From: Pseudomonadota bacterium
Lineage (GTDB): Bacteria; Bdellovibrionota; Bdellovibrionia; Bdellovibrionales; JACTMU01
Length of the DNA: 64,000 bases
Assembly (NCBI GenBank): GCA_014584465.1
Contig: JACTMU010000012.1
Coordinates: 95,333 to 159,332, forward strand
Direction: 5' to 3'
Made by a program: the position numbers and the translations under genes
Shown: positions 7,918-64,000 of the stretch, piece by piece
Position numbering within the stretch: position 1 is the first letter of the stretch
Layout: each line of letters starts with the position of its first letter
Notes under the pieces: generated by a model
What the model was told of the DNA's origin: nothing
Seen by the model: only the letters and a program-made list of their open reading frames with translations
The model's database searches: none

Positions 7918-7977
7918 TCCGCTCGAAATGGTGATGCGATTGAGTTATAGTCCATTCAGAATTTTCCGAATGGACGA

Positions 7978-9264: not shown

Positions 9265-9351
9265 CGTGACTTCTCTTCGGTGAAAGTGCACTCGGACTTT
9301 AGTCAAATATTAAATAATATATATATTGTTATACTAAAATGTGACTCTGTT

Positions 9352-9774: not shown

Positions 9775-9916
9775 GTTGTATTGACTAACGAAGAAATCGC
9801 TTCACGTCCAGCTTGATCCTTGACTTCCCCTCCCAATTTTCAATATGGTAGGCCGATTCACCAACAAGAAGGTAGGATTTGCGGGACGGCAAAGGGGTTA
9901 CGGGGTTGATTTTGGC

Positions 9917-10858: not shown

Positions 10859-10859
10859 C

Positions 10860-13570: not shown

Positions 13571-13610
13571 AGCTAATGAGCAAAACACAGCTTGTTGACC
13601 ATTTGCAAGA

Positions 13611-14543: not shown

Positions 14544-14701
14544 CCGCTCTTCTCCTGCGAAGTCTCATGGTCGTGACGAAATAGATGGTCGGATCTGGTT
14601 GTCAAAGAAGTCTCGCTGGGTTACATTAAGAGTGGTGCGTGGTGGTCTTCATGGTTTTTAGCCTATTTCTAATTTCAGATCCGAGTTGAAGGGGAAGAGT
14701 T

Positions 14702-15838
14702 ATGTCTGAGGTCTATAGCGGGGCTATTGATAAGGGTTTGGAGGGTGTTGTTGCCTGTACGACCGGCATTTCCTCGATTGTGGATGCGACACTATGCTAT
14801 TGCGGCTACACCATTGAAGATTTAGCTGCAAACTCAACTTTTGAGGAGGTCGTATTTCTTCTGTGGAATAAGAGACTTCCTAATCGTAATGAGCTTGAAA
14901 AGTTCACTTCGGAATTAAGAACACTGCAGTTCTTAGATCCGCAGTTTGTCGAGCTACTTAAAAAACTTCCTGCTGAGAATGTTCATCCGATGTCCTGGCT
15001 TCGAACGGCCACCTCAATGCTGTCGCTTTGGGATCGTAACACGCAGTTGGATACTCCAGAGGGCCGCAAAAACGTAGCGATCAATCTTGTTGCTAAGATG
15101 GGACTTTTGGTCACGGCGTTTTCTCGAATGAGGGAGAAGAAGGAGGTTGTGGCTCCTAAAAAGGATAGGAGCACAGCATGGAACTTTCTCTATACGTTGA
15201 CGGGAGAGGAGCCCAGCGAATCTCTTGTAAAAGACTTTGATGTGTGTCTTGTTCTGCATGCAGACCACGAACTCAACTGTTCCGCATTTGCGGCGAGGGT
15301 GACCGCTTCGTCACTAAGCGACATCTACTCCTCGGTTGTGAGTGCCATAGGTGCCCTTAAAGGACCACTTCATGGAGGCGCCAATGAGCAGGTTATGAGG
15401 ATGCTCAAGGATAAGGTCAAAGAGACTTCGCTTGCTCCGACATGGGTTCGTCGTGCTTTAGATAACAAAGAGAAGATTATGGGATTTGGCCATCGTGTTT
15501 ACAAGAATGGCGATCCTCGGGCTAAGATTTTACGAGATATGAGCAAAAGACTTTGTTCGCAAATTGGGCAACCCCAATGGTATGAAATGTCCGACATCAT
15601 TGATCAGACGGTGCGAAACGAAAAAGGATTGTTGCCCAACGTCGACTTCTACTCGGCCTCGGTGTATTACAGCATGAAGATCCCACTTGATCTCTATACC
15701 CCCATTTTTGCGGTTTCTCGCGTATCTGGTTGGTTGGCCCATGCCTTTGAGCAATATGCGAACAATCGAATCTACAGACCAAGGGGCGAATGGACTGGAG
15801 CCACTGGTTTGAAATGGAAGCCCCTCTCCGAACGCTAG
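14702..15838 (+). CDS. gltA: citrate synthase
   Basis: 378 aa. Contains the signature 'GFGHRVYKNGDPRA' and 'LHADHELNCS'. Confidence 0.92.
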   Translation: MSEVYSGAIDKGLEGVVACTTGISSIVDATLCYCGYTIEDLAANSTFEEVVFLLWNKRLPNRNELEKFTSELRTLQFLDPQFVELLKKLPAENVHPMSWLRTATSMLSLWDRNTQLDTPEGRKNVAINLVAKMGLLVTAFSRMREKKEVVAPKKDRSTAWNFLYTLTGEEPSESLVKDFDVCLVLHADHELNCSAFAARVTASSLSDIYSSVVSAIGALKGPLHGGANEQVMRMLKDKVKETSLAPTWVRRALDNKEKIMGFGHRVYKNGDPRAKILRDMSKRLCSQIGQPQWYEMSDIIDQTVRNEKGLLPNVDFYSASVYYSMKIPLDLYTPIFAVSRVSGWLAHAFEQYANNRIYRPRGEWTGATGLKWKPLSER

Positions 15839-19803: not shown

Positions 19804-20472
19804 CTAGAACTCGATAAGGCCGAGCCAAAATGGGAGATCTGCATCATCAGAAGAGAGCACTTGGCTTATGGAATCAAGGTTTCCTGGGCAGTTGAAAAAA
19901 GAGACGGGCACTGTGGAGCGGGAAAGTAGGGCAATCTTGTCGCTCTTGCGGGGGCGAAATGAGTTTAAGATAAGGTTTGCGGAGGTGTCGACGCCAATAA
20001 GATCGCGTGGAAGAGGTGGCAGGAGTTTCGTTTCAGAACTCAATTCAAGAGAGAAATCAATCGAGCTACCTAGAGGAACAGGCGTTGTGCAGTCTCGAAA
20101 CAAGAAAAGTTGCGGATGACCGACTTGAACCCACTGAAGTTCCTTCGAAACCAAGCTGCAGACAAAGAGTTCAAGACCCGAACGATACTCATGTGAGTTG
20201 ACTCTTTGATAGAGAGTTTCGTTTGCAAGCAGAACCGAAGTTCGAAGATTGTTGAGGGTTGTGTTAAGACAGGAGAGCTTCCCAAATGGTGAAGTAAGTT
20301 CTCCATCATCGTTGGCAGAAAGATAATAGTCAGCTATAATTTGGATTGCCTCGGTTGCGGTCTTTCTTAGACCCCAAGGTGTTGCGACAATGAGTAAGTT
20401 AGAGGAATCAAGAAAGATCTCCGGCCTCGGACGAAAAAAGACACCACCAAAAGATCGCTCTTGAATTTTCAT
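19804..20472 (-). CDS. degenerate PP2C/SpoIIE-like protein (tentative), last gene of the FHA operon
   Basis: 222 aa. 'LQWVQVGHPQLFLFRD' and 'LPPLPRDLIGVD...SDKIALLSRS' echo the SpoIIE-domain pattern, but I do not see the metal-binding Asp motifs. ATG 20472 overlaps the upstream TGA (ATGA). Confidence 0.35.
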   Translation of the reverse strand: MKIQERSFGGVFFRPRPEIFLDSSNLLIVATPWGLRKTATEAIQIIADYYLSANDDGELTSPFGKLSCLNTTLNNLRTSVLLANETLYQRVNSHEYRSGLELFVCSLVSKELQWVQVGHPQLFLFRDCTTPVPLGSSIDFSLELSSETKLLPPLPRDLIGVDTSANLILNSFRPRKSDKIALLSRSTVPVSFFNCPGNLDSISQVLSSDDADLPFWLGLIEF

Positions 20473-22406
20473 TTCACACCATAGAGGGAAAGTTTCTTCT
20501 TTGCCTTGTTGTAGTAGTCGCCAGTCTCTAGATCGAGGTCTTTGATTTTCTTCCAGATCGTCTTTGCTTCATCCACATTCCCGATGCTCTCCTGTAGAAT
20601 GCTGTCTTCGTAAAACTCCTTTAGAATAATATTGAGTTTTGATGAGGACTGACTTCGAATCTCGAGGGCCTTTTTTTGGTTAGAGTCAACTTTTAGAACG
20701 TCATCTGCTGCAATGATTGCTTCCTTAAGCTGTCCCTTCTCGAAATAGGATTGTGCAGAACTTAGACCTTCAGAAATGCGATTTTCCAAGAGAGAATCTA
20801 TTGAGGCAATATGGCGTTTAGCTCTTGCTTTGTATCCGCCTGCATCGGGAATCTGAGATCGAATGTATTTTGAAAATGCAGAGCGGGCCTCATGATACTT
20901 TTGTGCTTCGAGAAGATTCTCTGCTGATTGAAATTCACGTTTAGATTGAATGAGTTGTTCTTGGCGATTGCGTTCATTCATCTCTGCCAATCGAATCTTT
21001 TCAAGATTCATCTCAACCGTTTCTAGAATGTGGCTGGCTTCGATGTTTCCTGGATCTTTCTCAAGAACTAAAGAGAGACAGGATTCAATCTCCTCGAGGG
21101 ATCTAGTTGAGGAGGCCATTGACTTGCACTTGCTTAGGACTTCATTCATTTCGATACGCAACCGTTCCTGTTCTTCTTTAGCTCGAAGATTTTGTGTCTG
21201 GAGCTGTCGTATCTCAATGGCTCGATTGCAATGTCCTTCGATTTCCCTAGAATCCTTATAGGACGCAATCAGCTGATGTATTTTGTCAATTTCTGACTTT
21301 GCAAGTTCAAATTTGCCCTGGGTGAAAAGCTTCTTAGCAAGCGCATGTGTATCCATTACAATCAACTGATCTTTTGCACTGAGGCGATCAAATGGATCTT
21401 TACTATCTTTGGCGATTTCTTTCTTTGGATTGGGTTCATTGAAAATTTGGTAGACAATGACACCAATAATCAAAACAATGACCAATGTGAGAACTCTGTC
21501 TTTTGCCCCTTTCTTTGTCTTTCGATGGCGAGGAGATGGGTAAGGAGCAATGGAATCATGTCTTACATTGGGGTATTCAATCCCCATGTTTGATGCTGAG
21601 TAAAAATCTTGTTGAGATTGGGCCAGCTGGTTGGATTGAGGGATGATCAACTGGTTGGCTGGAAGTTCAACTCGAGAATCAAAATTTAGATCTTTGATCT
21701 CAAATGAAAAAACATTGTCCAGTGTGGAGATCGTATCACCACTGGACATTCGAATGAGCTCATTAGGTTCGATCTTTGTTCCATTGAGATTTGTTCCATT
21801 GGAGCTTTCAAGGTCTTTTATATAATATTCTTCATTGACCTTGGATATTTCAAATTGCCGACGACTGATGCGATTGTCAGGGACTACAAGATCACAGTTT
21901 TTGTCACGTCCTACGGTCCATTGAGTTCCCTCAAGACGAATCGATCGTGAGGAAGATAGTTGAGGTGACGAGAGAGTCAATGTTGCCTGAAAAGCACGTG
22001 TTTGAATCGCAGTAAATTGATCAAGATCTTCAGCTGAGATGGGTTCTTGCTTGTTTTGAAAAGATTCTTGGTCTAAGGGAACAATTCCCACACTCTGGTG
22101 TGACACAGAAGGTTCCTCCTGAAAGAATTGAAACGAATAGGGAGGAATCGAGAAAATAAGTTCATGATCCAGATTTATGGACTCGATCCTTTCATTCTTA
22201 TGTTCGAGCGTGCCCAACTTTGAGGTCAATTCTGCAACCCAAAATGGATGGACAAAGTGAAGCTTTAAGTGTTGTCGTGAAATTCCAGGATAGTCCTTTA
22301 ATACGACATCACAGGCTTGACTTCGGCCAAAGAGATACTCCTTGTTTGGGTCGAGATCAATTTTGTGAACTGTCTCGCCATTGAGTAAGATGACAAGCGC
22401 GGCCAC
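20469..22406 (-). CDS. double-FHA-domain membrane protein with TPR/coiled-coil C-terminal region
   Basis: 645 aa with a GTG start. FHA1 is 'YLFGRSQACDVVLKDYPGISRQHLKL'. FHA2 is 'WTVGRDKNCDLVVPDNRISRRQFEI...SSNGTNLNGTKI'. The TM segment is 'VLTLVIVLIIGVIVYQIF'. Confidence 0.8.
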   Translation of the reverse strand: MAALVILLNGETVHKIDLDPNKEYLFGRSQACDVVLKDYPGISRQHLKLHFVHPFWVAELTSKLGTLEHKNERIESINLDHELIFSIPPYSFQFFQEEPSVSHQSVGIVPLDQESFQNKQEPISAEDLDQFTAIQTRAFQATLTLSSPQLSSSRSIRLEGTQWTVGRDKNCDLVVPDNRISRRQFEISKVNEEYYIKDLESSNGTNLNGTKIEPNELIRMSSGDTISTLDNVFSFEIKDLNFDSRVELPANQLIIPQSNQLAQSQQDFYSASNMGIEYPNVRHDSIAPYPSPRHRKTKKGAKDRVLTLVIVLIIGVIVYQIFNEPNPKKEIAKDSKDPFDRLSAKDQLIVMDTHALAKKLFTQGKFELAKSEIDKIHQLIASYKDSREIEGHCNRAIEIRQLQTQNLRAKEEQERLRIEMNEVLSKCKSMASSTRSLEEIESCLSLVLEKDPGNIEASHILETVEMNLEKIRLAEMNERNRQEQLIQSKREFQSAENLLEAQKYHEARSAFSKYIRSQIPDAGGYKARAKRHIASIDSLLENRISEGLSSAQSYFEKGQLKEAIIAADDVLKVDSNQKKALEIRSQSSSKLNIILKEFYEDSILQESIGNVDEAKTIWKKIKDLDLETGDYYNKAKKKLSLYGVK

Positions 22407-23425
22407 TAGTATCCTCCTTCAAGTCGAAGTTCGCACTCAATCTTCATTTGATGCGCTTCTTGAAAGATGGCACTTTGTTGATCATGAACCATAACGAGAA
22501 CATTTCGTAAATATGAGATACAGAAGTCAAATTTGTTTTGGTCGTGATACTGTCGACCTCGAATCATGTAGTATTGTATGAGTTCGTCACGTTTTTGCTT
22601 TGCCTTTTTTCGATAGACCTCTGCCATCTGGTGCTGAGGATAAAGATTGAGACATGCAGTAAAGAGCTCAATGGACTCATCATAGGCTCCATTTTGATAG
22701 GCCCTAAACCCTTGAGTATAGAGTGCATTGGCATCAAAATATTGGCGTGTATTTTTTCCTGTGTGAGCACGCTGCTGTTTGATGAGATCGATTTGAGAGC
22801 GAGTTGCCTCAGTCTCCCCTTCTTGCTGCTGCAGTGTTCGAATTGGAACTTCAGTTTTTGGATTTGGATGAGATGTAAAGAGCCATCCGGCCAAAGCAAC
22901 AATTCCGAGCAGAAGGAAGTAAAAGGTCGCTGAACTCTTCTTTTTTCTGACACGGACTTTTGGTGGATTCTGTGAATGAAGATCCATGCCGGGCGTTGCT
23001 GAGAAGACTTGTGGAGGGGGCATTGGCGCAAAACCGGTTTCAGGAAGAGGACTGGGAGGAGTGTGAACCTGTGCCGATGGAAATGGAGCAGGAACTTGAG
23101 GAGAAGATTCAAGTCCAAACCGAAGTTCAGTATCGCCTATTTGAATGATGGAGCCTTCATTGAGAAGGGTCTTCTTCACTCTCTTTCCGTCCACAACAAG
23201 TGGTACCTTTTCACTTAAGTTTGAGATTGTAATTCGATTTTGCTCAAAGTTGATGCGCGCTTGGTTGCGACTGCATTTCTTATCATTAAGAACGATCTCG
23301 CACTCTTTGGCTCGACCAATCACGAGGGGCCGATCATTTGGAAGCATGAGTTTCGTTCCTCGATCAGGTCCATTGACAATGATGATGTTGGGTTGAAGTT
23401 GAGCAAGGGTGAGGGCGTGACTCAT
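22406..23425 (-). CDS. FHA-domain membrane protein with Pro-rich linker and TPR-like C-terminus
   Basis: 339 aa. FHA is 'LVIGRAKECEIVLNDKKCSRNQARINF'. The TM segment is 'FYFLLLGIVALAGWLF'. Confidence 0.8.
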   Translation of the reverse strand: MSHALTLAQLQPNIIIVNGPDRGTKLMLPNDRPLVIGRAKECEIVLNDKKCSRNQARINFEQNRITISNLSEKVPLVVDGKRVKKTLLNEGSIIQIGDTELRFGLESSPQVPAPFPSAQVHTPPSPLPETGFAPMPPPQVFSATPGMDLHSQNPPKVRVRKKKSSATFYFLLLGIVALAGWLFTSHPNPKTEVPIRTLQQQEGETEATRSQIDLIKQQRAHTGKNTRQYFDANALYTQGFRAYQNGAYDESIELFTACLNLYPQHQMAEVYRKKAKQKRDELIQYYMIRGRQYHDQNKFDFCISYLRNVLVMVHDQQSAIFQEAHQMKIECELRLEGGY

Positions 23426-25014
23426 GAATACCCTCCAGCGACATCTTCAGCTGGATGAATCGTGATGATATAGTATGCAACACTGTGGTCACCAAATATG
23501 GCGTGAGCAAATATTTCATAGTTTGAGCCACTAAAATCTATAGAGTCAGAGGCTATCCCAGATGATTGTGACTCCAGGTAGAGGAGAAGATCAGAAACAT
23601 TTTGTTGCAAAGCCTGATCTGGCAAATCTTGGATGGTCATATTCACGAGCGATTGGGCGTTGATTCCCGTTATGGCCTCAAAGAGACTGTTGGCCCCAAT
23701 GATGGTTTGATCATTTGGAGAGATGGCAAGGGCGGCAGCTCCTAGAATTTGGAGAAGATTTTGGGCTTCAGCTCGCCGGTCATGGACCGCTGTAAGTGGC
23801 ATCTCATCTTGAGTTGGGCCTTGAGCCATTCGAGAAAGCGCTGTATTGATGTTGGAAATCAGGTTTTGAAGAGGAGCAAATTGAAACTTCATGGTGATCG
23901 TTTCTGTTTTATTTTTGAGCGCAGAATCCACATGACGATTGAGGCGAACGAAGGGATATTCAATCAATCGATAGAGAAAGTAGTGGGCCAAAAGCGCAAC
24001 GAGAACTGCCATGAACAAGGTTTGAAAAAAGAGACTCATCGTTCGCCCATCATCGATGGCAAGCGAACCCATGTCGTAGATGACAATCGCATAGGCAGCC
24101 ACCTCCTGAGTCTGACGCTCAGGACTGTAATAGGTGATGGGAACTGAGGCCCCGATGGTCGAATCATCAATTTGATCGACATAAACAACATCTTTTCGTC
24201 GTGCTTGAGCAATAAAGGGTTCGCTTGGAAAGGTTCCAGCAAGACGTGACGGAGCCAGCACACTTCCGTCTGCATTGGAAAGAATATAGAGGGATTTTAC
24301 TCCCTCTTCCATCTGTGCTTCTTGAGTGGTTAATGAGGAATCCAACTTTTGGAGTACAGCCCGTTCATTTCTTTCCGCCAGATTGGTCGCTATGGTGAGA
24401 GATCGTCTGCGGCTTTCAACTTCAATGCTGTTCTTTGAAATTCGAATCATTGGAATGACCGAGAGAGTTGAGACGCATACAACTAGAGCGAGTATGATGC
24501 CAAGAACCACATATTTGAGTTCCACAAGATCTGCAAGTTTGTAGACCCCTGGGAGCATAACACGCTCTACGTAGTATCTGAAAAACTTTGGAAGATCATG
24601 GATGGCCTGAATGCGAGGAGCTACATTTGGATTTTCAGAAGGCGAGGATGATGTCATCGATGTAGAAGGATGCGCATGAAGTTGATGAACAGAAGCAAGT
24701 GGTGGCGGTGTCTGAAGTGTTGCAATTGAGTGACGAATAAGGTCGAACATCTTGTCTCCGAGAGAGAAGCGATCTCCCTCCTTGAGAAGTTTGGAACGAA
24801 TCTTGGTTCCATTGACAAAAGTTCCATTGGTTGAGTTTCGATCGACAAGCACAACGCCTTTGGGTGAAGTTTCGATTTGGGCATGCGTCTTGGAGATTCC
24901 TGTTTCGTTGAAATGAAGGGTGCAGTTTTGGGCTCTGCCAATTGTGAGAGTGCCTGGTTTGAGCGGAATGATCTGTCCTCGTTGTTCACCTGAAAGGATT
25001 CTAATGGCCCACAT
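23422..25014 (-). CDS. FHA-domain transmembrane sensor with C-terminal PAS-like domain
   Basis: I start it at ATG 25014 (MWAIRILSGEQRGQ...). FHA is 'TIGRAQNCTLHFNETGISKTHAQI...STNGTFVNGTKI'. It has two hydrophobic segments flanking ~150 aa, and a PAS-like C-terminus. I see no enzymatic output domain. Confidence 0.7.
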   Translation of the reverse strand: MWAIRILSGEQRGQIIPLKPGTLTIGRAQNCTLHFNETGISKTHAQIETSPKGVVLVDRNSTNGTFVNGTKIRSKLLKEGDRFSLGDKMFDLIRHSIATLQTPPPLASVHQLHAHPSTSMTSSSPSENPNVAPRIQAIHDLPKFFRYYVERVMLPGVYKLADLVELKYVVLGIILALVVCVSTLSVIPMIRISKNSIEVESRRRSLTIATNLAERNERAVLQKLDSSLTTQEAQMEEGVKSLYILSNADGSVLAPSRLAGTFPSEPFIAQARRKDVVYVDQIDDSTIGASVPITYYSPERQTQEVAAYAIVIYDMGSLAIDDGRTMSLFFQTLFMAVLVALLAHYFLYRLIEYPFVRLNRHVDSALKNKTETITMKFQFAPLQNLISNINTALSRMAQGPTQDEMPLTAVHDRRAEAQNLLQILGAAALAISPNDQTIIGANSLFEAITGINAQSLVNMTIQDLPDQALQQNVSDLLLYLESQSSGIASDSIDFSGSNYEIFAHAIFGDHSVAYYIITIHPAEDVAGGYS

Positions 25015-25345
25015 AGAGCTGATCTCCTTTGCAGGTAGGAACACGCTTAAGAGTGCCACCAGGAAGTTCGAAGACAGACCTGGCTCTGAACAAAATGCGA
25101 GTCATGCGCCATGGCCTGATGTTTTCATAGGCTCGAACCACGATGAGATTTTCGTCAACAAATAGGGCATCAATTGCAAATTTCATAAAGCATGTATGGA
25201 TGCTGTTGCACTGAGAAATCCAAAGAGCGCTTTGGTCTCTCATATTTGACGTGCCAAGGAGCCCTTTCAGCCTGGAGTAGAAGGTCGAGGCCATGGTCAC
25301 GTTTTCTGCAAGAACTCTGTTTGTTGAGACGTTTGTAAGTTTCAT
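25001..25345 (-). CDS. DUF192 (COG1430) protein
   Basis: 114 aa. 'RLKGLLG...IHTCFMKFAIDALFVD...VFELPGGT' matches the DUF192 pattern as I recall it. Confidence 0.65.
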   Translation of the reverse strand: MKLTNVSTNRVLAENVTMASTFYSRLKGLLGTSNMRDQSALWISQCNSIHTCFMKFAIDALFVDENLIVVRAYENIRPWRMTRILFRARSVFELPGGTLKRVPTCKGDQLYVGH

Positions 25346-54739: not shown

Positions 54740-56278
54740 TTAACCCTTAGAGTACTCCTTGGCAATGATCCCGAACTTCTCCATCTTTCTTAGGAGAGTC
54801 TTTTTGGAGATGTTGGCATGTATGGCCGTTTGGTTGATGCGACCTTTAAAGGTCTTAAGAGCCTTAATGATGAACTCTTTTTCAAAGGCCTCCTTCTGTC
54901 GGTAGTAGTCGAGCTTTCCACCAGGCAGATAAGAGACGTTGGCACCAAGAGCTCCTTCGACCTCGGTGTCACCTTCACCCATCGAGATCTCCTCGTCGTC
55001 AGAATCTGAGAGGTCCATCGAAGCCACTTCATCACTTGCGTCGATGTCGCCGTCATCGGGCTCAATGAGAGTCTTACCTTTTAAGATATGGTGAGAGACG
55101 GAGACACCCGTTGCAGCCAAAAGTTTCTCTGGCATTGAAGCGAGGGTGAGTTTGTTGGAAGTTTCAAGAATGAAAGCATGCTCGATCACATTTTCAAGTT
55201 CTCGAATGTTGCCTGGCCACTCATAGCGTTTAAGAAGAGCTAGGGCATCAGGTGTGATCCCGATGATTTTTTTACTTTGAGAGGTGTTGAACTTCTTAAT
55301 GAAGTTGGCGACCATCTGATCGATGTCATTTTTTCGTTCTGCAAGCGAAGGAAGAAAGATCGGGATGACATTGAGTCGGTAAAAAAGATCTTCTCTAAAG
55401 CTATTTTCTTCGATCATCTTTTCAAGAGGTCGGTTTGTGGCGGCAATGATGCGCACATCGGACTGGATTTCTCGGTTCGCTCCGACAGGAGTAAAGACCT
55501 TCTCCTGCAACACACGAAGAAGTTTTGCTTGAAGTAAGAGAGGAAGATCTCCAACTTCATCCAAAAATAGTGTACCACCTTCAGCAAATTGAAATTTCCC
55601 GATCTTTCGTTGATCCGCTCCTGTAAAAGAGCCCTTTTCGTGACCAAAGAGTTCACTTTCAAAGAGATTTTCTGGAATGGCAGAACAGTTGATGGCAACA
55701 AATTTTCCGCCCTTTCGAGCAGAGTTGAAATGTATGGCTCGCGCGACAAGCTCTTTACCCGTGCCCGAGGCTCCACGAATCAACACAGGTGTGTCGACCT
55801 TTGAGAGACGATTGATGATGTTAAAGACCTTTTGCATTTCTGCGGAGTTGCCAATGATGCGTCTTCCGGCCTCCATGAGAACAGGTGATGAAGCTGCAAG
55901 TTGGGCGATCATGCTCTTGGCACTCACGGCACGGTTGACCATGTCCACGAGAGTGGGGGCCTCAACGGGTTTTGAAATGTAATCGTAAGCACCCTCTTTG
56001 ACAGAGCGTACGGCATCGTCAATGTTGGCGTAGGCGGTGACAATCAAGACTGTGATGCTAGGATCGTGTTGTTTGATCTGTCGAAGGGCCTCAAGACCAT
56101 CAAGGTGAGGCATATCCACATCTAAAATCACAAGGTCATAGTGGCTGCTCCTTGTCTTTTCCACGGCACTGAGACCGTCCACAGCCTCATCGACTTCGAA
56201 GCGTCCGGTCGCCTCTAGGGTTGATCGAACGATGAGTCTTAGACCTTGATCATCATCTGCAACGAGTACACGCAACAT
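54740..56278 (-). CDS. sigma54-dependent response regulator (NtrC family)
   Basis: 512 aa. Receiver 'VLVADDD...LVILDVDMP', AAA+ 'GASGTGKELVARAIH' and 'GSFTGA', an acidic insertion, and a C-terminal HTH. Confidence 0.9.
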   Translation of the reverse strand: MLRVLVADDDQGLRLIVRSTLEATGRFEVDEAVDGLSAVEKTRSSHYDLVILDVDMPHLDGLEALRQIKQHDPSITVLIVTAYANIDDAVRSVKEGAYDYISKPVEAPTLVDMVNRAVSAKSMIAQLAASSPVLMEAGRRIIGNSAEMQKVFNIINRLSKVDTPVLIRGASGTGKELVARAIHFNSARKGGKFVAINCSAIPENLFESELFGHEKGSFTGADQRKIGKFQFAEGGTLFLDEVGDLPLLLQAKLLRVLQEKVFTPVGANREIQSDVRIIAATNRPLEKMIEENSFREDLFYRLNVIPIFLPSLAERKNDIDQMVANFIKKFNTSQSKKIIGITPDALALLKRYEWPGNIRELENVIEHAFILETSNKLTLASMPEKLLAATGVSVSHHILKGKTLIEPDDGDIDASDEVASMDLSDSDDEEISMGEGDTEVEGALGANVSYLPGGKLDYYRQKEAFEKEFIIKALKTFKGRINQTAIHANISKKTLLRKMEKFGIIAKEYSKG

Positions 56279-56368
56279 CCTTCCTACTCCTTTTTTGAAG
56301 TCCGGGAGGCTCAGTGCCCACTTTTGACCAGCGTTGAACCCCCGCGGAAACCAGTAACCCCAAAATTT

Positions 56369-58225
56369 TTACAGCCCTGTTGGCAATTCTACAATGAAGC
56401 TTGATCCCATTTTGACACCACTTTCAACACTTATGGTGCCTTGATGCAGCTCAACGAAATACTTAGCAAGATACAAGCCAAGCCCAGAGCCTTTGATCTT
56501 TGAAGTTTTTACATCCTTGCTTCGGTAGAACTTAAGAAAGATGTTATTGAGTTCATCACGCGGTATGCCGAGGCCGTCATCTTGGACCTCCACAACAACA
56601 AATCCATCTCGTTCATTGGTTGAGACGGTGATGTGGCTCTTTTCAGGGCTGTACTTGATCGCATTTTCAATCAAATTGGAAAAGACCTGTCCCATGAGCT
56701 CCACATCGATGCGGATACTAAAGAGCGGCTCAAAGTTGGTCGCAATGGAGATCTCTTTAGTAGATGCCAAATATTCGAATTTTTTAATGATTTCAGAAAG
56801 CAATGCATTGATATCTTTACTTGTAAGATGAAGTTTGATCTCTTTGCTTTCAACCCTTCCCAAATCCAAAATGGAGCTGATGAATCGGGTCAGCTCCTGC
56901 CCCGACTGGCGTATGGTCATGATTGCATCGCGTTGTCGATCGCTCAGAGTCTTTGGATCTCCGAGAATGATTTCTGTCATCCCCTGAATTCGAGCAAGTG
57001 GGGTCTTAAGGTCATGGGACATCATGCTGATGAAGTTGGTCTTTAGCTCTTCAACTTGAGTGAGAAGTTTGTTCTTTTGAAAATACTCCCAGCTGCGACG
57101 ATTCTCCATAATCAATCGATAGGGGATCAAGAGATAGTAGCAGAGGAAGCTTGCCAGCAGCGGATGGATCATCACCAAAATGACGCCAAACAGTGAAAAA
57201 AGAGCATAAGATAATAGACAAAATGTCACCACCACTAGGGTCAATGTGGCAAGGCCAATGGCGGGCTTGAGAGCCAAGACTGCATAGGTGATGACCAAGA
57301 CCACAAGTGAGGTCAAAACGAAGTTGACCCAATCCGGAGGACTTACCGGCGATGAATCAAGCAAAATCGTATCAAGCATATTGGCATGCATCTCAAGCAG
57401 GCTCATCCCAATGACCTCTCTTGAGTAGGGCGTTTGAATGTAGTCATCAGCATCCGTCTCAGAGTCGATGCCTAAAAAGACAAATCGATCGGTAAAGGTC
57501 CCTTGCGGAAAGTTCCCCTTGATCACATCGAGAAACGACGTTTGCGGATAGGACTTTGCGGGTCGATAATCTATTAAAAGTTGATCGGAATCATTAAAGT
57601 CAAAGACTCCTCTATACTTCTTGCTATCAGCTTCAGGATGGACCAACTGAGCCAATTGAAAGTGAAGGGTCTTTTCGCCGCCCCAATAGGTCAGAACAAC
57701 CCTTCTTGTCACCCCATCATTGGCCAATCGTCCACTGTCTCGAGTCCGTGGTCCCACCACCACACTGAGATGCTCAAGCGGTGGAGGCATAAGAAGCTCC
57801 TTCTCTTGCCCCTTGGCCACAGGATCTTGAGTCTGCACATAAAAGTGCTCAAACGACATCGCGACTCGAGCAAACTCCTCACGATCTTCCCGAACCCCCT
57901 CAAGACGCATCGGTGACACCAAATAGATCACCGCTTTAGGTCGATCCTTATGAATCTGATCCAAGAACTGAACATGATCTCGAAGACTCGGGGTGCGAGC
58001 GAGCTCCTTGATCGTTGGTCGATCAATGGCCACGGTTTGAATCTGCCCAGAGACCTCGTGAGCGGGCCGAGCCCTCACCCGCATATCATAAAGATAGCTT
58101 TCAAAATAGTAGAGCGGAAACTGATTCAAGATCGCGCCCGCCACAATCGCAAACCCAATTCTCAATCCATGAAAAAACCACTTATGTTTGATCACCTTAC
58201 GAATATTCAACGATGCCTCCATCAC
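56369..58225 (-). CDS. CHASE2-domain sensor histidine kinase
   Basis: 618 aa. It has a long extracytoplasmic N-domain, then 3 TM segments, then H-box 'MSHDLKTPLARI' and G-box 'GSGLGLYLAKYFVELHQG'. Confidence 0.8.
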   Translation of the reverse strand: MMEASLNIRKVIKHKWFFHGLRIGFAIVAGAILNQFPLYYFESYLYDMRVRARPAHEVSGQIQTVAIDRPTIKELARTPSLRDHVQFLDQIHKDRPKAVIYLVSPMRLEGVREDREEFARVAMSFEHFYVQTQDPVAKGQEKELLMPPPLEHLSVVVGPRTRDSGRLANDGVTRRVVLTYWGGEKTLHFQLAQLVHPEADSKKYRGVFDFNDSDQLLIDYRPAKSYPQTSFLDVIKGNFPQGTFTDRFVFLGIDSETDADDYIQTPYSREVIGMSLLEMHANMLDTILLDSSPVSPPDWVNFVLTSLVVLVITYAVLALKPAIGLATLTLVVVTFCLLSYALFSLFGVILVMIHPLLASFLCYYLLIPYRLIMENRRSWEYFQKNKLLTQVEELKTNFISMMSHDLKTPLARIQGMTEIILGDPKTLSDRQRDAIMTIRQSGQELTRFISSILDLGRVESKEIKLHLTSKDINALLSEIIKKFEYLASTKEISIATNFEPLFSIRIDVELMGQVFSNLIENAIKYSPEKSHITVSTNERDGFVVVEVQDDGLGIPRDELNNIFLKFYRSKDVKTSKIKGSGLGLYLAKYFVELHQGTISVESGVKMGSSFIVELPTGL

Positions 58226-58383
58226 ACCCCCGCCACCTTACCATAGAGAGTGTGATTTCAGCAATCAGAGAACGCCCTGTAAATTCTACATATTGAGCAT
58301 CGAGTTAACTGCGTATATAAGAGTTCGAATCATCTTTTCTTCGGAAGTCGAAACAGATGACCAAAACGTGTAGAGGGGTAAGT

Positions 58384-59241
58384 ATGAATCGGGATTTCAG
58401 TTTTGGATATTACTTCAACGTACTGGCTCAAATGGTATTCTTCCCAAACCTTAAGATTAAACCCAAGCAAAAGTGGGTCAAAGCAATTGAAGATATAGGG
58501 CAAGTTCATAGGCTTCGTGTTCAACGTGATGGCAAGGTCGTCTCCGCAGTCAAAATATCTCGCACGAGTGAGCCTCAAGGCGTTGTGGTATTGGGGCATC
58601 CCATTTCAAAGAAAGCTAAATTCTTCTTTGGTGAAAAATCGCGAATTTCTTTCTATCTCGAGCGTGGTTTTGACGTTGTTGCATTTGACTTCAATGGCTT
58701 TGGTGAATCAGATCGGATCGATCTTCGATATTGGAAAGATGCCCAGGCCGTAGTACAACACCTTCGACAAGAATACAATAATCATCGATTTGTCCTCCAT
58801 GGTGTAAGTTTTGGGTCGTTTCATGTGCTAAGAGCCTACAAAGATTTGCCGAAAAATTCGGTTGTAGTCTTAGAAAATATGAGTCGATCACTCTATGATT
58901 ATTGGAAACGATGGCTTCATACAAGATTGATCATTAGATTTCTCGAAAAACTACCAATTCAAGCATTCCAGGAGATGGAAGTGATTGAGCAGTTTAAAAC
59001 TTGGGATCGACCGGATATCACCATTATGGCCATTGCGAGCGAAAAGGACATTTATACGCCTGCAGATGAAATGAAGGACGCCATCTCCTACCTAAGACAA
59101 AGGAATCACTTTGTACTTCTACCTAATGCGACTCACTTGCAAGGTCCTTATGAACAGTCGGATCTCTATCGACTGTCACTGAATCGTGCGCTCAACCCAT
59201 CTCAAAACAAAATAATGTTTTATGAGTCCGCGCAACCATAG
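58384..59241 (+). CDS. alpha/beta hydrolase
   Basis: I chose ATG 58384 (AGAGGGG SD upstream). The nucleophile elbow is 'HGVSFGS', with candidate Asp ('SEKDIYTP') and His ('NATHLQG'). Confidence 0.75.
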   Translation: MNRDFSFGYYFNVLAQMVFFPNLKIKPKQKWVKAIEDIGQVHRLRVQRDGKVVSAVKISRTSEPQGVVVLGHPISKKAKFFFGEKSRISFYLERGFDVVAFDFNGFGESDRIDLRYWKDAQAVVQHLRQEYNNHRFVLHGVSFGSFHVLRAYKDLPKNSVVVLENMSRSLYDYWKRWLHTRLIIRFLEKLPIQAFQEMEVIEQFKTWDRPDITIMAIASEKDIYTPADEMKDAISYLRQRNHFVLLPNATHLQGPYEQSDLYRLSLNRALNPSQNKIMFYESAQP

Positions 59242-59293
59242 GTGGAAGTGATTATTGGTACAAGTTTAGGATAGACTTAAAAGGAATCTGAAT

Positions 59294-59401
59294 ATGCTGG
59301 ATGGTCGAGCCAAGAGACAGGAGCTTTGGATTAATAATGCAACCTTCAATAACGGAATTCCATTTGAGGTTGAGACTCATTTTGGTTTCCCAAGAAAATG
59401 A
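59294..59401 (+). CDS. unannotated 35-codon ORF: candidate precursor peptide
   Basis: Own translation: MLDGRAKRQELWINNATFNNGIPFEVETHFGFPRK*. AAGGA sits at 59281..59285 with an 8-nt spacer to the ATG. The TGA overlaps ATG 59398 (ATGA). Coding status is unproven. Confidence 0.3.
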   Translation: MLDGRAKRQELWINNATFNNGIPFEVETHFGFPRK

Positions 59402-59421
59402 TAAATTTGGAGGATATATTA

Positions 59422-59715
59422 ATGGGGGTAAATATGAAGTGGACTTCGATTCTATTGACCGTTCTTTCTCAAGCCGGCTTCTGTCAGTCCGACAGTATAA
59501 ACCAAAAGACATTTGATGCAGATACTGCCAAACAAGTTTTGGTAGCTCTTACCTCGGTGACACCACAGGAAGGAAAGCCCTATCCTTTATTATCTGAGCT
59601 TTTAGCTGGTCGCCTTACGATTGAGACACTTTCGGACAATGAAAAGATAGACCTTGAAGTTGAGATTAGACTGCTTGCAGCCAGCTTAGCCGAAAAACAA
59701 GGTTCAATTATCTAA
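59422..59715 (+). CDS. small protein with signal-peptide-like N-terminus (function unknown)
   Basis: There are three in-frame ATGs (59398, 59422, 59434). ATG 59422 has the best SD (GGAGGA at 59409..59414). The sequence reads MGVNMKWTSILLTVLSQAGFCQSD.... Confidence 0.55.
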   Translation: MGVNMKWTSILLTVLSQAGFCQSDSINQKTFDADTAKQVLVALTSVTPQEGKPYPLLSELLAGRLTIETLSDNEKIDLEVEIRLLAASLAEKQGSII

Positions 59716-59738
59716 ATCACAGTGAGAACCGAGACAAT

Positions 59739-61238
59739 ATGGGCGATGAATCTGAACTCTTTATAGTTTTATCGAATACATGTAATTTCAAATGTTCCCA
59801 TTGCGTCAGCATGTCTGCCCCAATCCCAGAAAATAAGTTTAGTATCTCTTTATCCGAGATAACAGATTTGGTTGAATGGATTAAGAATGAGGCTAGGATT
59901 AAGCGAATTCACTTTTCCGGTGGCGAGCCTACGTTACATCTTGATCTAATTCAGTTGATTCAAGTTCAATTGCCAAATCTGTCGTATGCCATGACCACAA
60001 ATGGTTGGTTCGGGAAGAATCCGGATAAGATCTTAGGAAAAATGAGGCTAGATCTCGTATTTTTTTCATATGATCAATTCCACAAGCCATTCATAGATAC
60101 GGAACCTCTTAGAAATGCAATGGGAGCGACTGTTAGAAAGGGAATCAGAACATTTCTAAAGTTTACTGTAAACTGTGCCGAAGATTTTGCCTTAATTCCG
60201 GAAATAATGGTCCCGGGGGTCAAAATTGTTTCTAACAGCACTGTTCTTGCCGGACGCGCGAGAAAGAAGAATATTGGGATAAGTCGGCCGTCTAAACCCG
60301 AAATGGTGGCACTTGAAGGTTGTCCTTCATTGCGAGAAGACCGAATCGATTCACTGGAGAGAATTGTCTTTCACCCAGGTAAAGGTTTGAGTCCTTGTTG
60401 TGGGCCATTAGTTGATCCATTACTTGGGGATCCTGATCTTTTGTTCACTAAAACTGGTGAAGACTACTTTCGAGGAAACAGAATGCGTAATTTTCTGATG
60501 AGAGGTAATTTTTTGGCGCAGGTTCCTAACCTAAACGTACCTGTTGAGCATTGCAAATCGCAATGTTCAGTATGTGAATATATTTATGGTAGATTCAAAA
60601 CGCCTGGATTGAGATCTGACATTATGAAAGCAATGGAGCCATCTTGTATACCACTAAACACCTATTTGGATTCAGATGATCAAGACCGATTGAAATCCAA
60701 ATTTAGACTTGCATATTTTTTAAGCTCAAGTGCCTCGTCGTTGGCAATCGCAAAGTCAGAGATCGTAGCTGTTGAGGCACACGGGATTAGAACTGAACTC
60801 ATAACTGAAGCAAATCAGTCGAGGGCCTTAGACCTTTTTATCAGAGCTTTCGAACGAAAGTGCCCAAACCGGGCGTCGGCCGAAGAATTGGCAGACATTC
60901 GCACTAAACTAGGAGGCTTCTTAGTAAATTCAGGCAGTTCACTCCTCTACTATTCCAATAACCAAGCTGTTGGTTTATTCGGAATTTGGAGAGGAATGTT
61001 TCACTATTTCTTTCAGAAGAAGGTGAATCATGTTGGCGTCTATGGCTACGATTCTAATTTAGTTAACAAAACTCAAGCTCAAGCAATGAAGCAACATTGG
61101 TATCAGGAAATGATAGGTTTAGTTGATAAAAATAACAAGCTTGATACAACTGTGAGAATTGATACATTTAACCTACCATCCTTAAAACTTGCTCACAAGT
61201 TTGGTTTTATGGTAACTGGATTAGAAATTTCACCATGA
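59739..61238 (+). CDS. radical SAM protein with Cys-rich auxiliary region fused to a GNAT-like C-terminal domain
   Basis: 499 aa. 'SNTCNFKCSHCV' is the CxxxCxxC motif, and 'FSGGEPTL' is the SAM-binding GGE motif. Later Cys motifs are 'EGCPS...GLSPCCGP' and 'CKSQCSVCEY'. The last ~170 aa end in 'NLPSLKLAHKFGFMVTG', which is GNAT-like and tentative. Confidence 0.7.
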   Translation: MGDESELFIVLSNTCNFKCSHCVSMSAPIPENKFSISLSEITDLVEWIKNEARIKRIHFSGGEPTLHLDLIQLIQVQLPNLSYAMTTNGWFGKNPDKILGKMRLDLVFFSYDQFHKPFIDTEPLRNAMGATVRKGIRTFLKFTVNCAEDFALIPEIMVPGVKIVSNSTVLAGRARKKNIGISRPSKPEMVALEGCPSLREDRIDSLERIVFHPGKGLSPCCGPLVDPLLGDPDLLFTKTGEDYFRGNRMRNFLMRGNFLAQVPNLNVPVEHCKSQCSVCEYIYGRFKTPGLRSDIMKAMEPSCIPLNTYLDSDDQDRLKSKFRLAYFLSSSASSLAIAKSEIVAVEAHGIRTELITEANQSRALDLFIRAFERKCPNRASAEELADIRTKLGGFLVNSGSSLLYYSNNQAVGLFGIWRGMFHYFFQKKVNHVGVYGYDSNLVNKTQAQAMKQHWYQEMIGLVDKNNKLDTTVRIDTFNLPSLKLAHKFGFMVTGLEISP

Positions 61239-62701
61239 AAAAAATGAATATAATCAATCAAAAATTGGCTATTGCTCTTGTCTTGAGTGTAAGTATCTGT
61301 GTTAAATGTACTAAGAAAGTCGAAAATAGGACATTTAGAGTTGGGCTTCGGGCAATTCCAGAACGTCTTGATCCGAGAAATAATGACGTAAACATCTTCC
61401 ACTACATTAATAGCAACCTGTATTATCCTTTGTTTGACAAAACCAGCTATGGCAAACTTCAGAGCGATTTCTTAGATATGGACACGACAGAAGCACGAGA
61501 CCAAATTTTTAGTACTTTTAGAATGTGTCTTAAGGAAGGAATTAGTTTTTCTGACGGGACTTCAATAAGAAGCTCACACCTAGAGAATTCGATTAGATTT
61601 GTTCACCAAAAGGACATGGAATTGCCGGTCTTGGAATCTTTGAGAGCAGAAGGGTTTTGTGTAGACGTCAAGTTACAACGAGGTGAGCCGAAATATTTTG
61701 ATAAGCTTTCAACGTTGGAATCTACTTTGCTTAAGGAGGAGCCATCATTTGAAAATCCAGCACCAATAGGTCTTGGTCCATTTCATATCATTGTTATGAA
61801 TAATGAAAAGATTATCTTGAAAAGATCTTCTGCTCAGTCGACTAAGCGAGGCATAGATGTTTTAGAATTCCTTAAAATTGCTACCCCAGAAGACGGTGAA
61901 CGTTTGCAAATTCATGACTGGAACAATCTCTGGCCACACCTTGGGGCAAACGCACCCTTGCCATCGTACATCATAAATGATTGGCGGCGATTTGAACAAA
62001 GTTTAGTGCGTAGCTTAATGATAGTGACTCACATCAAAAATGCGAATTTGAGTAAGAAACTCGCGTATTGTTTTGATCGCCTGACCTATAAAAAGCGACT
62101 TGGTATGGATCTTACGAATATTCCGGGCTTTTTACCAAAGGGGCTCACTGGTTCACGCGTTTCGTTTGAGGAAATAAAGGGCACTTGGGGATTCACTAAA
62201 GAGGACTGTCGAGCGGCTTCAAAAAATACGAAAATCGTGCCATTTATCTTGTTCTATCCAACACTTGAGGCTCATTTAAGACTATTTCTAGAAGACGTCC
62301 AAGATTCATTGCCCATACGGATAGGAGTATCTACAGTATCGGTCAACGAGGCGATAGCTAAACTGTATAGTGGAGAAGAGCTACTTATTGCCACCCTCGC
62401 TGATACGATCAAAGGGCGAGCAGCTGGGTTTTTCGTACCTTTTTTAGGCGATAAGAGGGTTATAATTCAAAATTTAATTGGACTTGATGCGCTATTGAGA
62501 AAGGGTGCCACATCTAATGACGTGGACGAGTCTGAAAAATATTTTGAAATTGTCCATAGAAAGCTTCTCGAAACAGGAGCAATAATACCTCTAGGACAAG
62601 TGCATTCGACATTCTACTATCCAAAATTTGTCAAAGCAATTCCAGCCGTTGATCTTGCAAATGGATTTCCGAGAATTGATCAAATTGAGGTGGCAGAGTG
62701 A
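61235..62701 (+). CDS. periplasmic solute-binding protein, family 5 (OppA/DppA/NikA-like)
   Basis: 488 aa with an N-terminal signal/lipobox-like 'LVLSVSICVKC'. 'FRVGLRAIPERLDPR' is typical of the family-5 SBP N-terminus. The ATG overlaps the rSAM TGA (ATGA). Confidence 0.65.
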   Translation: MKKMNIINQKLAIALVLSVSICVKCTKKVENRTFRVGLRAIPERLDPRNNDVNIFHYINSNLYYPLFDKTSYGKLQSDFLDMDTTEARDQIFSTFRMCLKEGISFSDGTSIRSSHLENSIRFVHQKDMELPVLESLRAEGFCVDVKLQRGEPKYFDKLSTLESTLLKEEPSFENPAPIGLGPFHIIVMNNEKIILKRSSAQSTKRGIDVLEFLKIATPEDGERLQIHDWNNLWPHLGANAPLPSYIINDWRRFEQSLVRSLMIVTHIKNANLSKKLAYCFDRLTYKKRLGMDLTNIPGFLPKGLTGSRVSFEEIKGTWGFTKEDCRAASKNTKIVPFILFYPTLEAHLRLFLEDVQDSLPIRIGVSTVSVNEAIAKLYSGEELLIATLADTIKGRAAGFFVPFLGDKRVIIQNLIGLDALLRKGATSNDVDESEKYFEIVHRKLLETGAIIPLGQVHSTFYYPKFVKAIPAVDLANGFPRIDQIEVAE

Positions 62702-64000
62702 ATCGGATATTCCTGTTTCTTTTTTTGGGAGGTGCTATCGCGACGCCGTCAGCCATGATAGCAGAGAACTTCGAGCAGGATCGCTTAGTCAAGCGATCTC
62801 TTGAAGTTTGGGAACAGGAACTCGCATCTTCTATCGTTTCAGAACAAATGTTTATGGTGGATCGAATTGTAAATAGCCTTAAAACGGAGGTCATCGAGCG
62901 AATCAGTATTACAAAAGATGATAAGAATTTTTTTTCGATACCGTCAATGGCTGAAATCGGAACTTGCAAATTTAGTTCAGGGAAGGATATCTATCGTTAT
63001 AATCGAAGGGTTGCCCGTCTAGAATATTGTAAGTCCGTAAGAAATCTTTTTGTTCTTGCCATCGAGTCGACCTTCTTTTGGTTCTTACTTTCAGGATTTA
63101 TTGCATTGAGTTTGGTTGTTCAGATCCTATCTCTTAGGGGATATCGTTCATCGTTGTTGAACGTACTTGATTATTTGAGAAATTGGGCGGAGTCAGATTT
63201 GTCAAGAAAGCAGCTTGAAACAGAACTTTTGGGACAGAAAGACGATCCTTTGGCCCAACAGTTGATAGGTTTAGTGAGCGAAGGCACTGCGGTACGACTG
63301 GAGTTATTGAAGGTGAAAGGTGACCTGGAAAAGAATGAACTTATGGCCATAGTTGCAAGTCAAGTGGCCCATGACATTCGTTCACCATTATCAGCTCTAG
63401 ATATGGTATTGAAAGATCTAGGCAACATGCCTGAAGATAAAAGAATCTTAGTTCGTACTGCCACACAGAGAATTAAAGACATAGCAAACAATTTAATTGA
63501 AAAGAATAGATCAAGAAAGTTGGGACTTTGTACAATCGATGGATCAAATTTGAACCAAGTACCCACTGTCCACTTGATTTCAAATGTACTTGACTCGATC
63601 GTGTCTGAAAAACGAACTCAGTTTAGAAATAGACCAAGTGTAGAGATTGACCTTTTAGTAGACGAACAGAGCTACGGTCTGTTTGCCATTGTGAATTTAT
63701 GTGAGCTAAAACGAATCATTTCAAACCTCATAAATAACTCGGTGGAGGCCTTAGGCGATAGTGGGTTTGTGCGAGTGCAAATCATTTCTCCAGATAGTAG
63801 ATGTTTGAAGATTCAGGTGAGAGATAACGGCAAAGGCGTGCCATCGCATATACTCGCGCAATTTGGTGAGCGCGGCGTGAGCCATAAGAAAGCCGATACT
63901 GAGTCAGGTAGTGGGCTTGGTATTCCTCACGCAAAGTCTACTATAGAAGGATGGGGTGGTAAATTTGAGGCTGAGAGTACAGTTGGCAAGGGGACAACGG
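62698..64000 (+). CDS. sensor histidine kinase, partial (3' end beyond the window)
   Basis: Own translation from GTG 62698, which overlaps the SBP TGA. It has two hydrophobic segments, H-box 'QVAHDIRSPLSAL', N-box 'NLINNSVEAL' and G-boxes 'DNGKGVP' and 'GSGLGIPHAK'. It is absent from the ORF track because it is open-ended. Confidence 0.8.
   Translation, partial: MNRIFLFLFLGGAIATPSAMIAENFEQDRLVKRSLEVWEQELASSIVSEQMFMVDRIVNSLKTEVIERISITKDDKNFFSIPSMAEIGTCKFSSGKDIYRYNRRVARLEYCKSVRNLFVLAIESTFFWFLLSGFIALSLVVQILSLRGYRSSLLNVLDYLRNWAESDLSRKQLETELLGQKDDPLAQQLIGLVSEGTAVRLELLKVKGDLEKNELMAIVASQVAHDIRSPLSALDMVLKDLGNMPEDKRILVRTATQRIKDIANNLIEKNRSRKLGLCTIDGSNLNQVPTVHLISNVLDSIVSEKRTQFRNRPSVEIDLLVDEQSYGLFAIVNLCELKRIISNLINNSVEALGDSGFVRVQIISPDSRCLKIQVRDNGKGVPSHILAQFGERGVSHKKADTESGSGLGIPHAKSTIEGWGGKFEAESTVGKGTT

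Follow-up and report, generated by a model that had tools for sequence, protein, structure and literature searches.

The closest described counterpart of the protein treated here is the peptide epimerase EpeE (YydG) of Bacillus subtilis (PDB 8ai1-8ai6; TIGR04078), a radical S-adenosylmethionine (SAM) enzyme whose family is characterized by the L-to-D epimerization of valine and isoleucine residues in a ribosomal peptide. In EpeE an extended twitch domain, known as T-SPASM, houses the sole auxiliary [4Fe-4S] cluster, and Cys223 gives a hydrogen atom back to the C-alpha radical of the substrate (PMC8326336, PMC13012085). The enzyme acts on its ribosomal peptide without a recognition element of the kind found in pathways for peptides made on ribosomes and modified after translation (RiPP recognition element, RRE), and the product is a membrane-active toxin (PMC8326336). 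Radical SAM epimerization at C-alpha of ribosomal peptides, again with a protein cysteine as hydrogen donor, is also carried out by the proteusin epimerases PoyD and OspD (PMC8326336). The present analysis concerns a 64,000-nucleotide stretch of DNA (the window) from an uncultured member of the Bdellovibrionota, and in particular an intact open reading frame (ORF) at 59739..61238 on the forward strand. This gene encodes a 499-residue protein in which an EpeE-like radical SAM module is followed by a domain with the predicted fold of the GCN5-related N-acetyltransferases (GNATs), and it lies in a recurrent cassette with genes for a small secreted protein, a solute-binding protein, and a sensor histidine kinase. 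Two further groups of known systems bear on this arrangement. Elp3, the catalytic subunit of Elongator, carries a radical SAM domain and then a GNAT (lysine acetyltransferase) domain in one polypeptide of about 500 residues, and in the CBP-ChiS and LuxP-LuxQ pairs a periplasmic binding protein gene lies beside a membrane histidine kinase gene with no cognate ATP-binding cassette (ABC) permease or ATPase.

Residues 1-290 of the window protein (59739..60608) are, as judged from profile searches and a predicted structure, a remote homolog of EpeE. Pfam recognizes Radical_SAM at residues 9-110 (E 9.7e-12) as well as Fer4_12, and nothing else in the 499 residues; the best NCBIfam model is TIGR04078 (rSAM_yydG, the YydG-family peptide epimerase), which covers residues 7-223 at 51.3 bits against a cutoff of 300. 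The solved EpeE structures were matched in a single-sequence phmmer search of the PDB (E 8.6e-10), and a profile built from 16 relatives matched EpeE 8ai1 over the whole chain at E 1.6e-34, with the runner-up at 1.7e-8. Searched with Foldseek, an AlphaFold2 model of the full-length protein (mean predicted local distance difference test, pLDDT, 85; predicted template modeling score, pTM, 0.61) gave nine top hits that were all EpeE; the alignments span ~315 columns (E ~1e-14), their template modeling (TM) scores normalized to EpeE are 0.65-0.68, and the residue identity is ~21%. The two proteins are collinear across the whole of EpeE; they have in common the CxxxCxxC motif, the GGE motif, and the C...CC...CxxC pattern of the T-SPASM domain, and a small ORF lies just upstream of both genes. 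Other SPASM and twitch families were considered and set aside, since GDGT-MAS, SkfB, viperin, and MoaA were matched only at E ~1e-8 and only over the core. Because neither the equivalog cutoff of TIGR04078 nor the operon context of EpeE is matched, we regard the module as a remote homolog rather than a member of the EpeE family proper. L-to-D epimerization, the trait of that family, is a prediction from homology for the present protein, whose host is a member of the Bdellovibrionota rather than a Firmicute.

The cysteines offer the most detailed point of comparison. The cluster motif CNFKCSHC occupies residues 15-22 (C15, C19, and C22) and SGGEPTL residues 60-66 (with G61-G62-E63); downstream lie C195-x24-C220-C221 and then CKSQCSVC at residues 272-279. 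EpeE has only five C-terminal cysteines, arranged as H-C-P, C-C, and C-x2-C, and in the profile alignment to 8ai1 their partners are C195-P196, C220-C221, and C276-x2-C279. In 43 of 43 fused relatives there is no variation at C15/C19/C22, at G61-G62-E63, or at C195, C220, C221, C276, and C279, and these five C-terminal cysteines are the only ones conserved there. C221 aligns to EpeE Cys223 and is kept in the stand-alone radical SAM relatives as well; C195, C220, C276, and C279 would, on the strength of this alignment, be the ligands of an auxiliary cluster. A first-pass annotation made from the letters of the window had pointed to the four motifs CNFKCSHC, SGGEPTL, C-x24-CC, and CKSQCSVC, all of which are located in the 499-residue ORF, and had judged their spacing to differ from that of SPASM domains. 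The latter is borne out: the features of seven-cysteine SPASM maturases (PF13186, Cx2Cx5Cx3C, two auxiliary clusters) are not found, with no Pfam SPASM match and no Cx2Cx5Cx3C anywhere in the protein. The same annotation took CKSQCSVC for a second CxxxCxxC motif, and this claim has to be given up. C272 occurs in only 1 of the 43 fused relatives, so that the resemblance is coincidental, while C276 and C279 are invariant; a third cluster site at CKSQCSVC is likewise ruled out, C272 being peculiar to the window protein. Nor is the cysteine arrangement an unfamiliar one, since each of the five cysteines in the C-terminal part of EpeE/YydG has its partner in it.

What sets the protein apart from EpeE is an additional C-terminal region of ~200 residues (60636..61235, forward strand), which comprises a small N-terminal lobe (residues 300-350) and a GNAT-fold domain (residues 350-499). 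In the AlphaFold2 models of both the full-length protein and of residues 292-499 (for the latter, pLDDT 86 and pTM 0.82), residues 350-499 follow the GNAT order beta1-alpha1-alpha2-beta2-beta3-beta4-alpha3-beta5-alpha4-beta6. When the domain model was searched with Foldseek, the 50 best PDB matches were all GNAT acyltransferases (E 2e-9 to 4e-5, TMq 0.41-0.61), headed by two-lobed GNATs, among them 3frm, MAB_4324, VipF, MshD, and WecD. The likeness to such two-lobed enzymes, and to GNATs that tailor RiPPs, extends over ~205-220 columns and includes the extra N-terminal lobe; the identity is 9-14%, and the window domain differs from them in having neither the coenzyme A (CoA) motif discussed below nor a match to a curated model. 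H431, G433, G436, K451, and N478 are nearly invariant in the clade, and four of them (H431, G433, G436, and N478) fall on beta4 and on the junction of beta5 with alpha4, where catalytic residues of GNATs typically lie. At the beta4-alpha3 junction, where GNATs carry the pyrophosphate loop, the clade instead reads H-I-G-Y-W-G-Y-D-[KR]-[SN]-x-x-[ST]-[KR], with the segment D-[KR]-[SN]-x-x-[ST]-[KR] in place of that loop. Sequence models respond faintly: GNAT models of Pfam matched 3 of the 43 relatives, all below threshold; a weak Acetyltransf_3 (RimJ/RimL-type) signal was seen in P0004 and in the protein of locus L028; and a PDB profile search with the C-terminal domain reached E ~0.6 at best, covering only the beta5-alpha4 stretch "N..S..l..k.GF". 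The predicted structure thus gives good support to the GNAT fold of the C-terminal ~200 residues, but not to the use of acyl-CoA. One relative (P0003; locus L004, 206-1729) has a low-complexity insert, THTHTHTHTHT, in the alpha3-beta5 loop of this domain at residues ~465-475.

A profile of the C-terminal domain, searched against 1.84 billion representative proteins, returned 100 hits, none of them a generic GNAT. The family as assembled here holds 102 sequences: 46 complete fusions, 7 fusion fragments, and 49 in which the domain stands alone, mostly in proteins of 195-260 residues. The clade occurs either fused to an EpeE-like radical SAM module or, in the loci examined, encoded beside a radical SAM gene; stand-alone radical SAM relatives of ~285 residues keep all the cysteines. 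A second protein search with a 43-member profile found no further fused members, and a scan of the contigs of species-representative genomes found no full-length relatives, returning generic radical SAM cores and one split-type locus, L008. Two more fused loci, L031 and L032, were recovered from metagenomes among 80 mostly irrelevant radical SAM genes by scanning with a generic GGEP pattern. The names that family members bear in databases are uninformative, one being labeled RimJ/RimL and another MoaA/NifB/PqqE. One database entry, P0005 (459 residues, no radical SAM motif), is a truncated call; its ORF reaches an upstream ATG at 9837 of locus L005 (9837-11380) and thereby gains CNFSCSHC. An exact-sequence look-up of the window protein matched no public contig. 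We found no curated model for the GNAT clade, for the small protein, or for the subgroup of binding proteins described below, and in our literature searches neither the fusion nor the cassette turned up.

The fusion itself had been flagged at the outset as an unusual combination that could not be placed in a named family, and this judgment can now be qualified. The architecture is real, in that both modules lie in one polypeptide, and we could assign the fusion to no described family. Residues 1-290, on the other hand, can be placed as a remote homolog of EpeE/YydG; the suggestion of a GNAT-like last third is upheld by structure prediction and fold search and finds no match among sequence models; and the joining of radical SAM and GNAT domains in a chain of ~500 residues has a precedent in Elp3, with the same domain order. 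As far as sequence and predicted structure can tell, the window protein is nevertheless unrelated to Elp3, an enzyme that acts on tRNA U34, has no T-SPASM domain, and stands in a different gene context: no Elp3 chain appeared in the phmmer search of the PDB (E up to 10) or among the 50 listed Foldseek matches of each model, and the best NCBIfam model is that of YydG. The proteusin epimerases PoyD and OspD, for their part, have no GNAT domain.

Gene neighborhoods were surveyed at 13 distinct loci, in a family of ~100 representatives. In seven the modules are fused (the window, L001/L002, L003, L004, L005/L006, L031, and L032), and in six they are split (L007, L008, L028, L029/L030, L111, and L112). 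A binding-protein homolog accompanies the radical SAM gene in 13 of 13 loci, a histidine kinase gene comes after it wherever the contig is long enough, and a GNAT, fused or as a separate gene, is found in 12 of 13. In the split loci a separate gene of 220-248 codons lies between the radical SAM and binding-protein genes, except in L111, where it follows the binding-protein gene. The C-terminal domain profile recognizes the separate genes of L028 and L029 and not those of L007, L111, and L112, and a BLASTP comparison of the domain with the 220-residue protein of L007 gave no match; the separate gene of L111 encodes a canonical GNAT, above Pfam cutoffs and with QNRGIG as its motif A. The L008 locus, from an Elusimicrobia metagenome-assembled genome, consists of the small ORF, the radical SAM gene, the binding-protein gene, and the kinase gene (7699-12000), and two unrelated SPASM-type radical SAM genes lie downstream of it (12696-15366). 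In L005 and L006 (1-7800) the cassette directly adjoins genes for conjugative type IV secretion (a TraG/VirD4-like gene, TrbI, and a relaxase-like gene), a position that suggests that the cassette can travel on a mobile element.

Within the window, the gene that follows the fusion (61235..62701, forward strand) encodes a 488-residue homolog of the family-5 (Opp/Dpp/Nik-type) solute-binding proteins with an N-terminal signal or lipoprotein sequence. A profile of 11 orthologs of this protein matched YliB, NikA, OppA, DppE, and MppA in the PDB (E 5e-15 to 1e-8), and Pfam SBP_bac_5 hits 7 of the 11. No ABC permease or ATPase gene lies beside the binding-protein gene, and neither a protease nor an ABC transporter is a conserved member of the cassette at the loci examined. 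The next gene (62698..64000, forward strand, cut by the end of the window) encodes a sensor histidine kinase with a first transmembrane segment, a periplasmic segment of ~110 residues, a second transmembrane segment, and HisKA and HATPase domains; its GTG start is preceded by GAGGTGG. The stop codon of the fused gene overlaps the start of the binding-protein gene (ATGA, 61235), and the stop codon of the latter overlaps the start of the kinase gene (GTGA, 62698), which indicates that the three genes form one operon. The setting differs from that of EpeE, which is encoded in epeXEPAB with its precursor, the membrane protease EpeP, and the ABC transporter EpeAB; here a binding protein and a kinase stand in place of the protease and the transporter. 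It resembles that of CBP-ChiS and LuxP-LuxQ, in which a binding protein gene is likewise found beside a kinase gene and without an ABC permease or ATPase. The cassette would depart from those systems in its ligand, putatively an enzyme-modified ribosomal peptide or protein whose gene belongs to the operon itself.

Two reverse-strand regulatory genes just upstream of the cassette, identified with Pfam, may be part of its circuit. One (54740..56278) encodes a sigma54-dependent response regulator and the other (56369..58225) a CHASE2 histidine kinase. L001 has this pair in synteny; there and in the window the response regulator lies within 3.5 kb, next to the CHASE2 kinase. In L003, L005/L006, and L031 a sigma54 response regulator is found directly upstream in the same orientation. 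On the basis of this neighborhood, the pair at 54740..58225 is possibly linked to the cassette. Between the CHASE2 kinase gene and the small ORF lies a gene for an alpha/beta hydrolase (58357-59241, forward strand), which bears a very faint resemblance to the model for the quorum-quenching lactonase UilS, at 26 bits against a cutoff of 400; the hydrolase is not kept in other loci, and L001 has a trypsin-like gene in its place.

A candidate for the enzyme's substrate is encoded at the head of the cassette. The small ORF at 59422..59715 (forward strand) specifies 97 residues from the ATG at 59422, which has GGAGG 8 nt upstream (the longest ORF runs from 59398), and it ends 23 nt upstream of the fused gene. 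Its product has a Sec-type signal peptide, MGVNMKWTSILLTVLSQA, with predicted cleavage before GF, then a helical region, and a C-terminal end reading ...KQGSII; ~70 residues would remain after cleavage. In possessing a Sec signal peptide and in this mature length, the candidate differs from the substrate of EpeE. A small ORF with a signal peptide is found beside the radical SAM gene in 12 of the 12 loci with enough upstream sequence (L032 is too short), in most of them 14-60 nt upstream; L111 has it on the other strand. Aligned, the small proteins have in common a signal peptide and a short conserved helix, and the C-terminal tails read GSII in the window, GSII in L001, and GGII in L004. The product of 59422..59715 is most likely the precursor or substrate of the enzyme.

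We propose, with a probability of roughly 45%, that the window gene encodes a two-module peptide maturase, at once an epimerase and an acyltransferase, and that the modified peptide is secreted and sensed by the binding protein together with the kinase. In such a scheme the cluster of the CxxxCxxC motif would cleave SAM to the 5'-deoxyadenosyl radical, and in an aliphatic residue of the substrate this radical would abstract the hydrogen at C-alpha. A hydrogen atom would then be given back on the opposite face by C221, the counterpart of EpeE Cys223, so that an L-residue becomes a D-residue, while a single auxiliary [4Fe-4S] cluster would be held by C195, C220, C276, and C279. The GNAT module would most likely acylate an amine of that substrate, with acyl-CoA as the donor, and may help to dock it as well. 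The performance of both radical chemistry and N-acylation by one protein, as initially suggested from its sequence, is plausible. The small protein would undergo modification in the cytoplasm before its export by Sec, and the modified product would then be bound in the periplasm by the co-transcribed family-5 binding protein, which would signal via the co-transcribed histidine kinase and probably onward to the sigma54 response regulator. The analysis establishes the homology and fold of both modules, the conserved cysteines, the occurrence of fused and split genes, and the recurring neighborhood; from these we infer that the protein epimerizes and acylates, what its substrate is, and that it takes part in signaling.

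Several observations weigh against this proposal. The radical SAM module is not that of an EpeE ortholog, given a TIGR04078 score of 51 against a cutoff of 300, and the counterpart of EpeE D210 is only partially conserved, being E or D in 25 of the 43 relatives. In the C-terminal region the Q/RxxGxG/A motif A for CoA pyrophosphate, expected at the beta4-alpha3 junction, is not found in the fused clade, and neither Pfam nor NCBIfam matches this region of the window protein; how the two modules are placed relative to each other is uncertain in the full-length model (pTM 0.61). The L008 cassette is without any GNAT gene. As for the substrate, the small proteins differ across the family in their C-terminal tails, which contain no conserved core sequence, and a Sec signal peptide is unusual for a protein that a cytoplasmic radical SAM enzyme modifies; its N-terminal amine would be exposed only after export. 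Finally, no sigma54 -24/-12 promoter (GG-N10-GC) was found upstream of the small ORF in the window. A scan of 59150-59800 for sigma70 promoters and terminators gave nothing above chance. Upstream of the small ORF of L001, at 4291-4305, one GG-N10-GC candidate (aGGTACaatttgTGCA) does resemble such a sigma54 promoter.

Some of these observations can be turned into alternative accounts of the enzyme. The GNAT-fold domain could be catalytically dead and serve to dock the substrate, much as an RRE does, in which case the enzyme would only epimerize. The clade-wide replacement of motif A by D-[KR]-[SN]-x-x-[ST]-[KR], the failure of Pfam GNAT models on 40 of 43 members, and the L008 cassette that does without a GNAT gene all agree with such a role, as does the fact that EpeE itself has no RRE (PMC8326336). 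We nonetheless consider a dead domain unlikely, because H431, G433, G436, and N478 are nearly invariant at typical catalytic positions and because the equivalent gene of L111 encodes a canonical GNAT with an intact CoA motif; it can be argued from the latter that acyl transfer belongs to the pathway. A quite different kind of dependence between the modules would be cooperation as in Elp3, in which acyl-CoA bound to the GNAT domain would join the radical reaction and a C-C bond would form, rather than two independent modifications. The order of the domains is that of Elp3, and the repeated occurrence of the fusion (46 full fusions) suggests one substrate and one site. This possibility appears very improbable to us, however: no Elp3 structure was recovered by the PDB sequence search at E values up to 10 or among the listed Foldseek matches, the hydrogen-donor cysteine that defines the epimerase mechanism is invariant, and the modules also exist as separate genes—in L111, with the binding-protein gene between them.

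The chemistry or the product may also differ from that proposed. With an identity to EpeE of only ~21%, a YydG model score far under its cutoff, and a gene context unlike epeXEPAB, the radical SAM module could install a crosslink, a thioether, a C-methyl group, or a similar modification; alternatively, since the product of EpeE is a membrane-active toxin, the product here could be an antimicrobial toxin, with the binding protein and kinase serving autoinduction or immunity instead of signaling between cells. The collinearity with EpeE over its full length speaks against another chemistry, including as it does the CC pair whose second cysteine is the hydrogen donor, while a toxin is harder to reconcile with a cassette that has no conserved immunity ABC transporter or dedicated protease and in which only the binding protein and the kinase, together a receptor-type pair, are invariant partners. 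On balance, we find it improbable that either holds. Doubt can be cast on the substrate, too. If the enzyme modified another peptide or a small molecule, the small upstream protein might assist the binding protein and kinase as an accessory in the periplasm; its Sec signal peptide is atypical of radical SAM substrates, its C-terminal tail is variable, and in L111 its ORF is on the opposite strand. Yet the ORF is beside the radical SAM gene in 12 of the 12 loci with enough upstream sequence, in most of them at the classic position of a precursor, 14-60 nt upstream, and enzymes of the EpeE type work on ribosomal peptides. We regard such an accessory role as a slim prospect, and retain the small protein as the candidate substrate of a two-module maturase.

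The surroundings of the cassette are those of a chromosome, since the window also encodes isoleucyl-tRNA synthetase (IleRS), topoisomerase I, and Tex. Among named relatives of this IleRS, the best are from metagenome-assembled genomes of Bdellovibrionales, Bdellovibrionaceae, and Oligoflexia, at ~57% identity. The region from 58000 to 64000, which contains the cassette, has 37-43% G+C, against 46-50% at 50-58 kb and 45.5% for the window as a whole; this low G+C may reflect horizontal acquisition. Elsewhere in the window, and unrelated to the fused gene, two large FHA-domain proteins encoded at 20469-25059 on the reverse strand match the cytoplasmic domain of the YscD-type inner-membrane component.

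EpeE-type epimerases are known mainly from one toxin pathway in Bacillus, and the family now extends to uncultured Gram-negative lineages, where it is recurrently fused or adjacent to a dedicated and highly divergent GNAT clade; both are tied to a receptor-like pair of binding protein and kinase. It is conceivable, though we advance the idea tentatively and with considerable doubt, that these genes, often joined by one for a sigma54 regulator, constitute a previously unrecognized peptide signaling system in diderm bacteria (Bdellovibrionota, Elusimicrobia, and others), in which a ribosomal product would acquire D-residues and an acyl group in the cytoplasm, be exported by Sec, and read by a dedicated binding protein-kinase receptor. 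If this is true, it would provide a testable case of an enzyme-modified, D-amino-acid-containing ribosomal signal in diderms, where peptide signaling is poorly documented, as well as a compact maturase with two activities for peptide engineering. And even if the signaling idea fails, ~100 diverse sequences would be available for the study of the T-SPASM domain and of the use of a hydrogen-donor cysteine beyond Bacillus.

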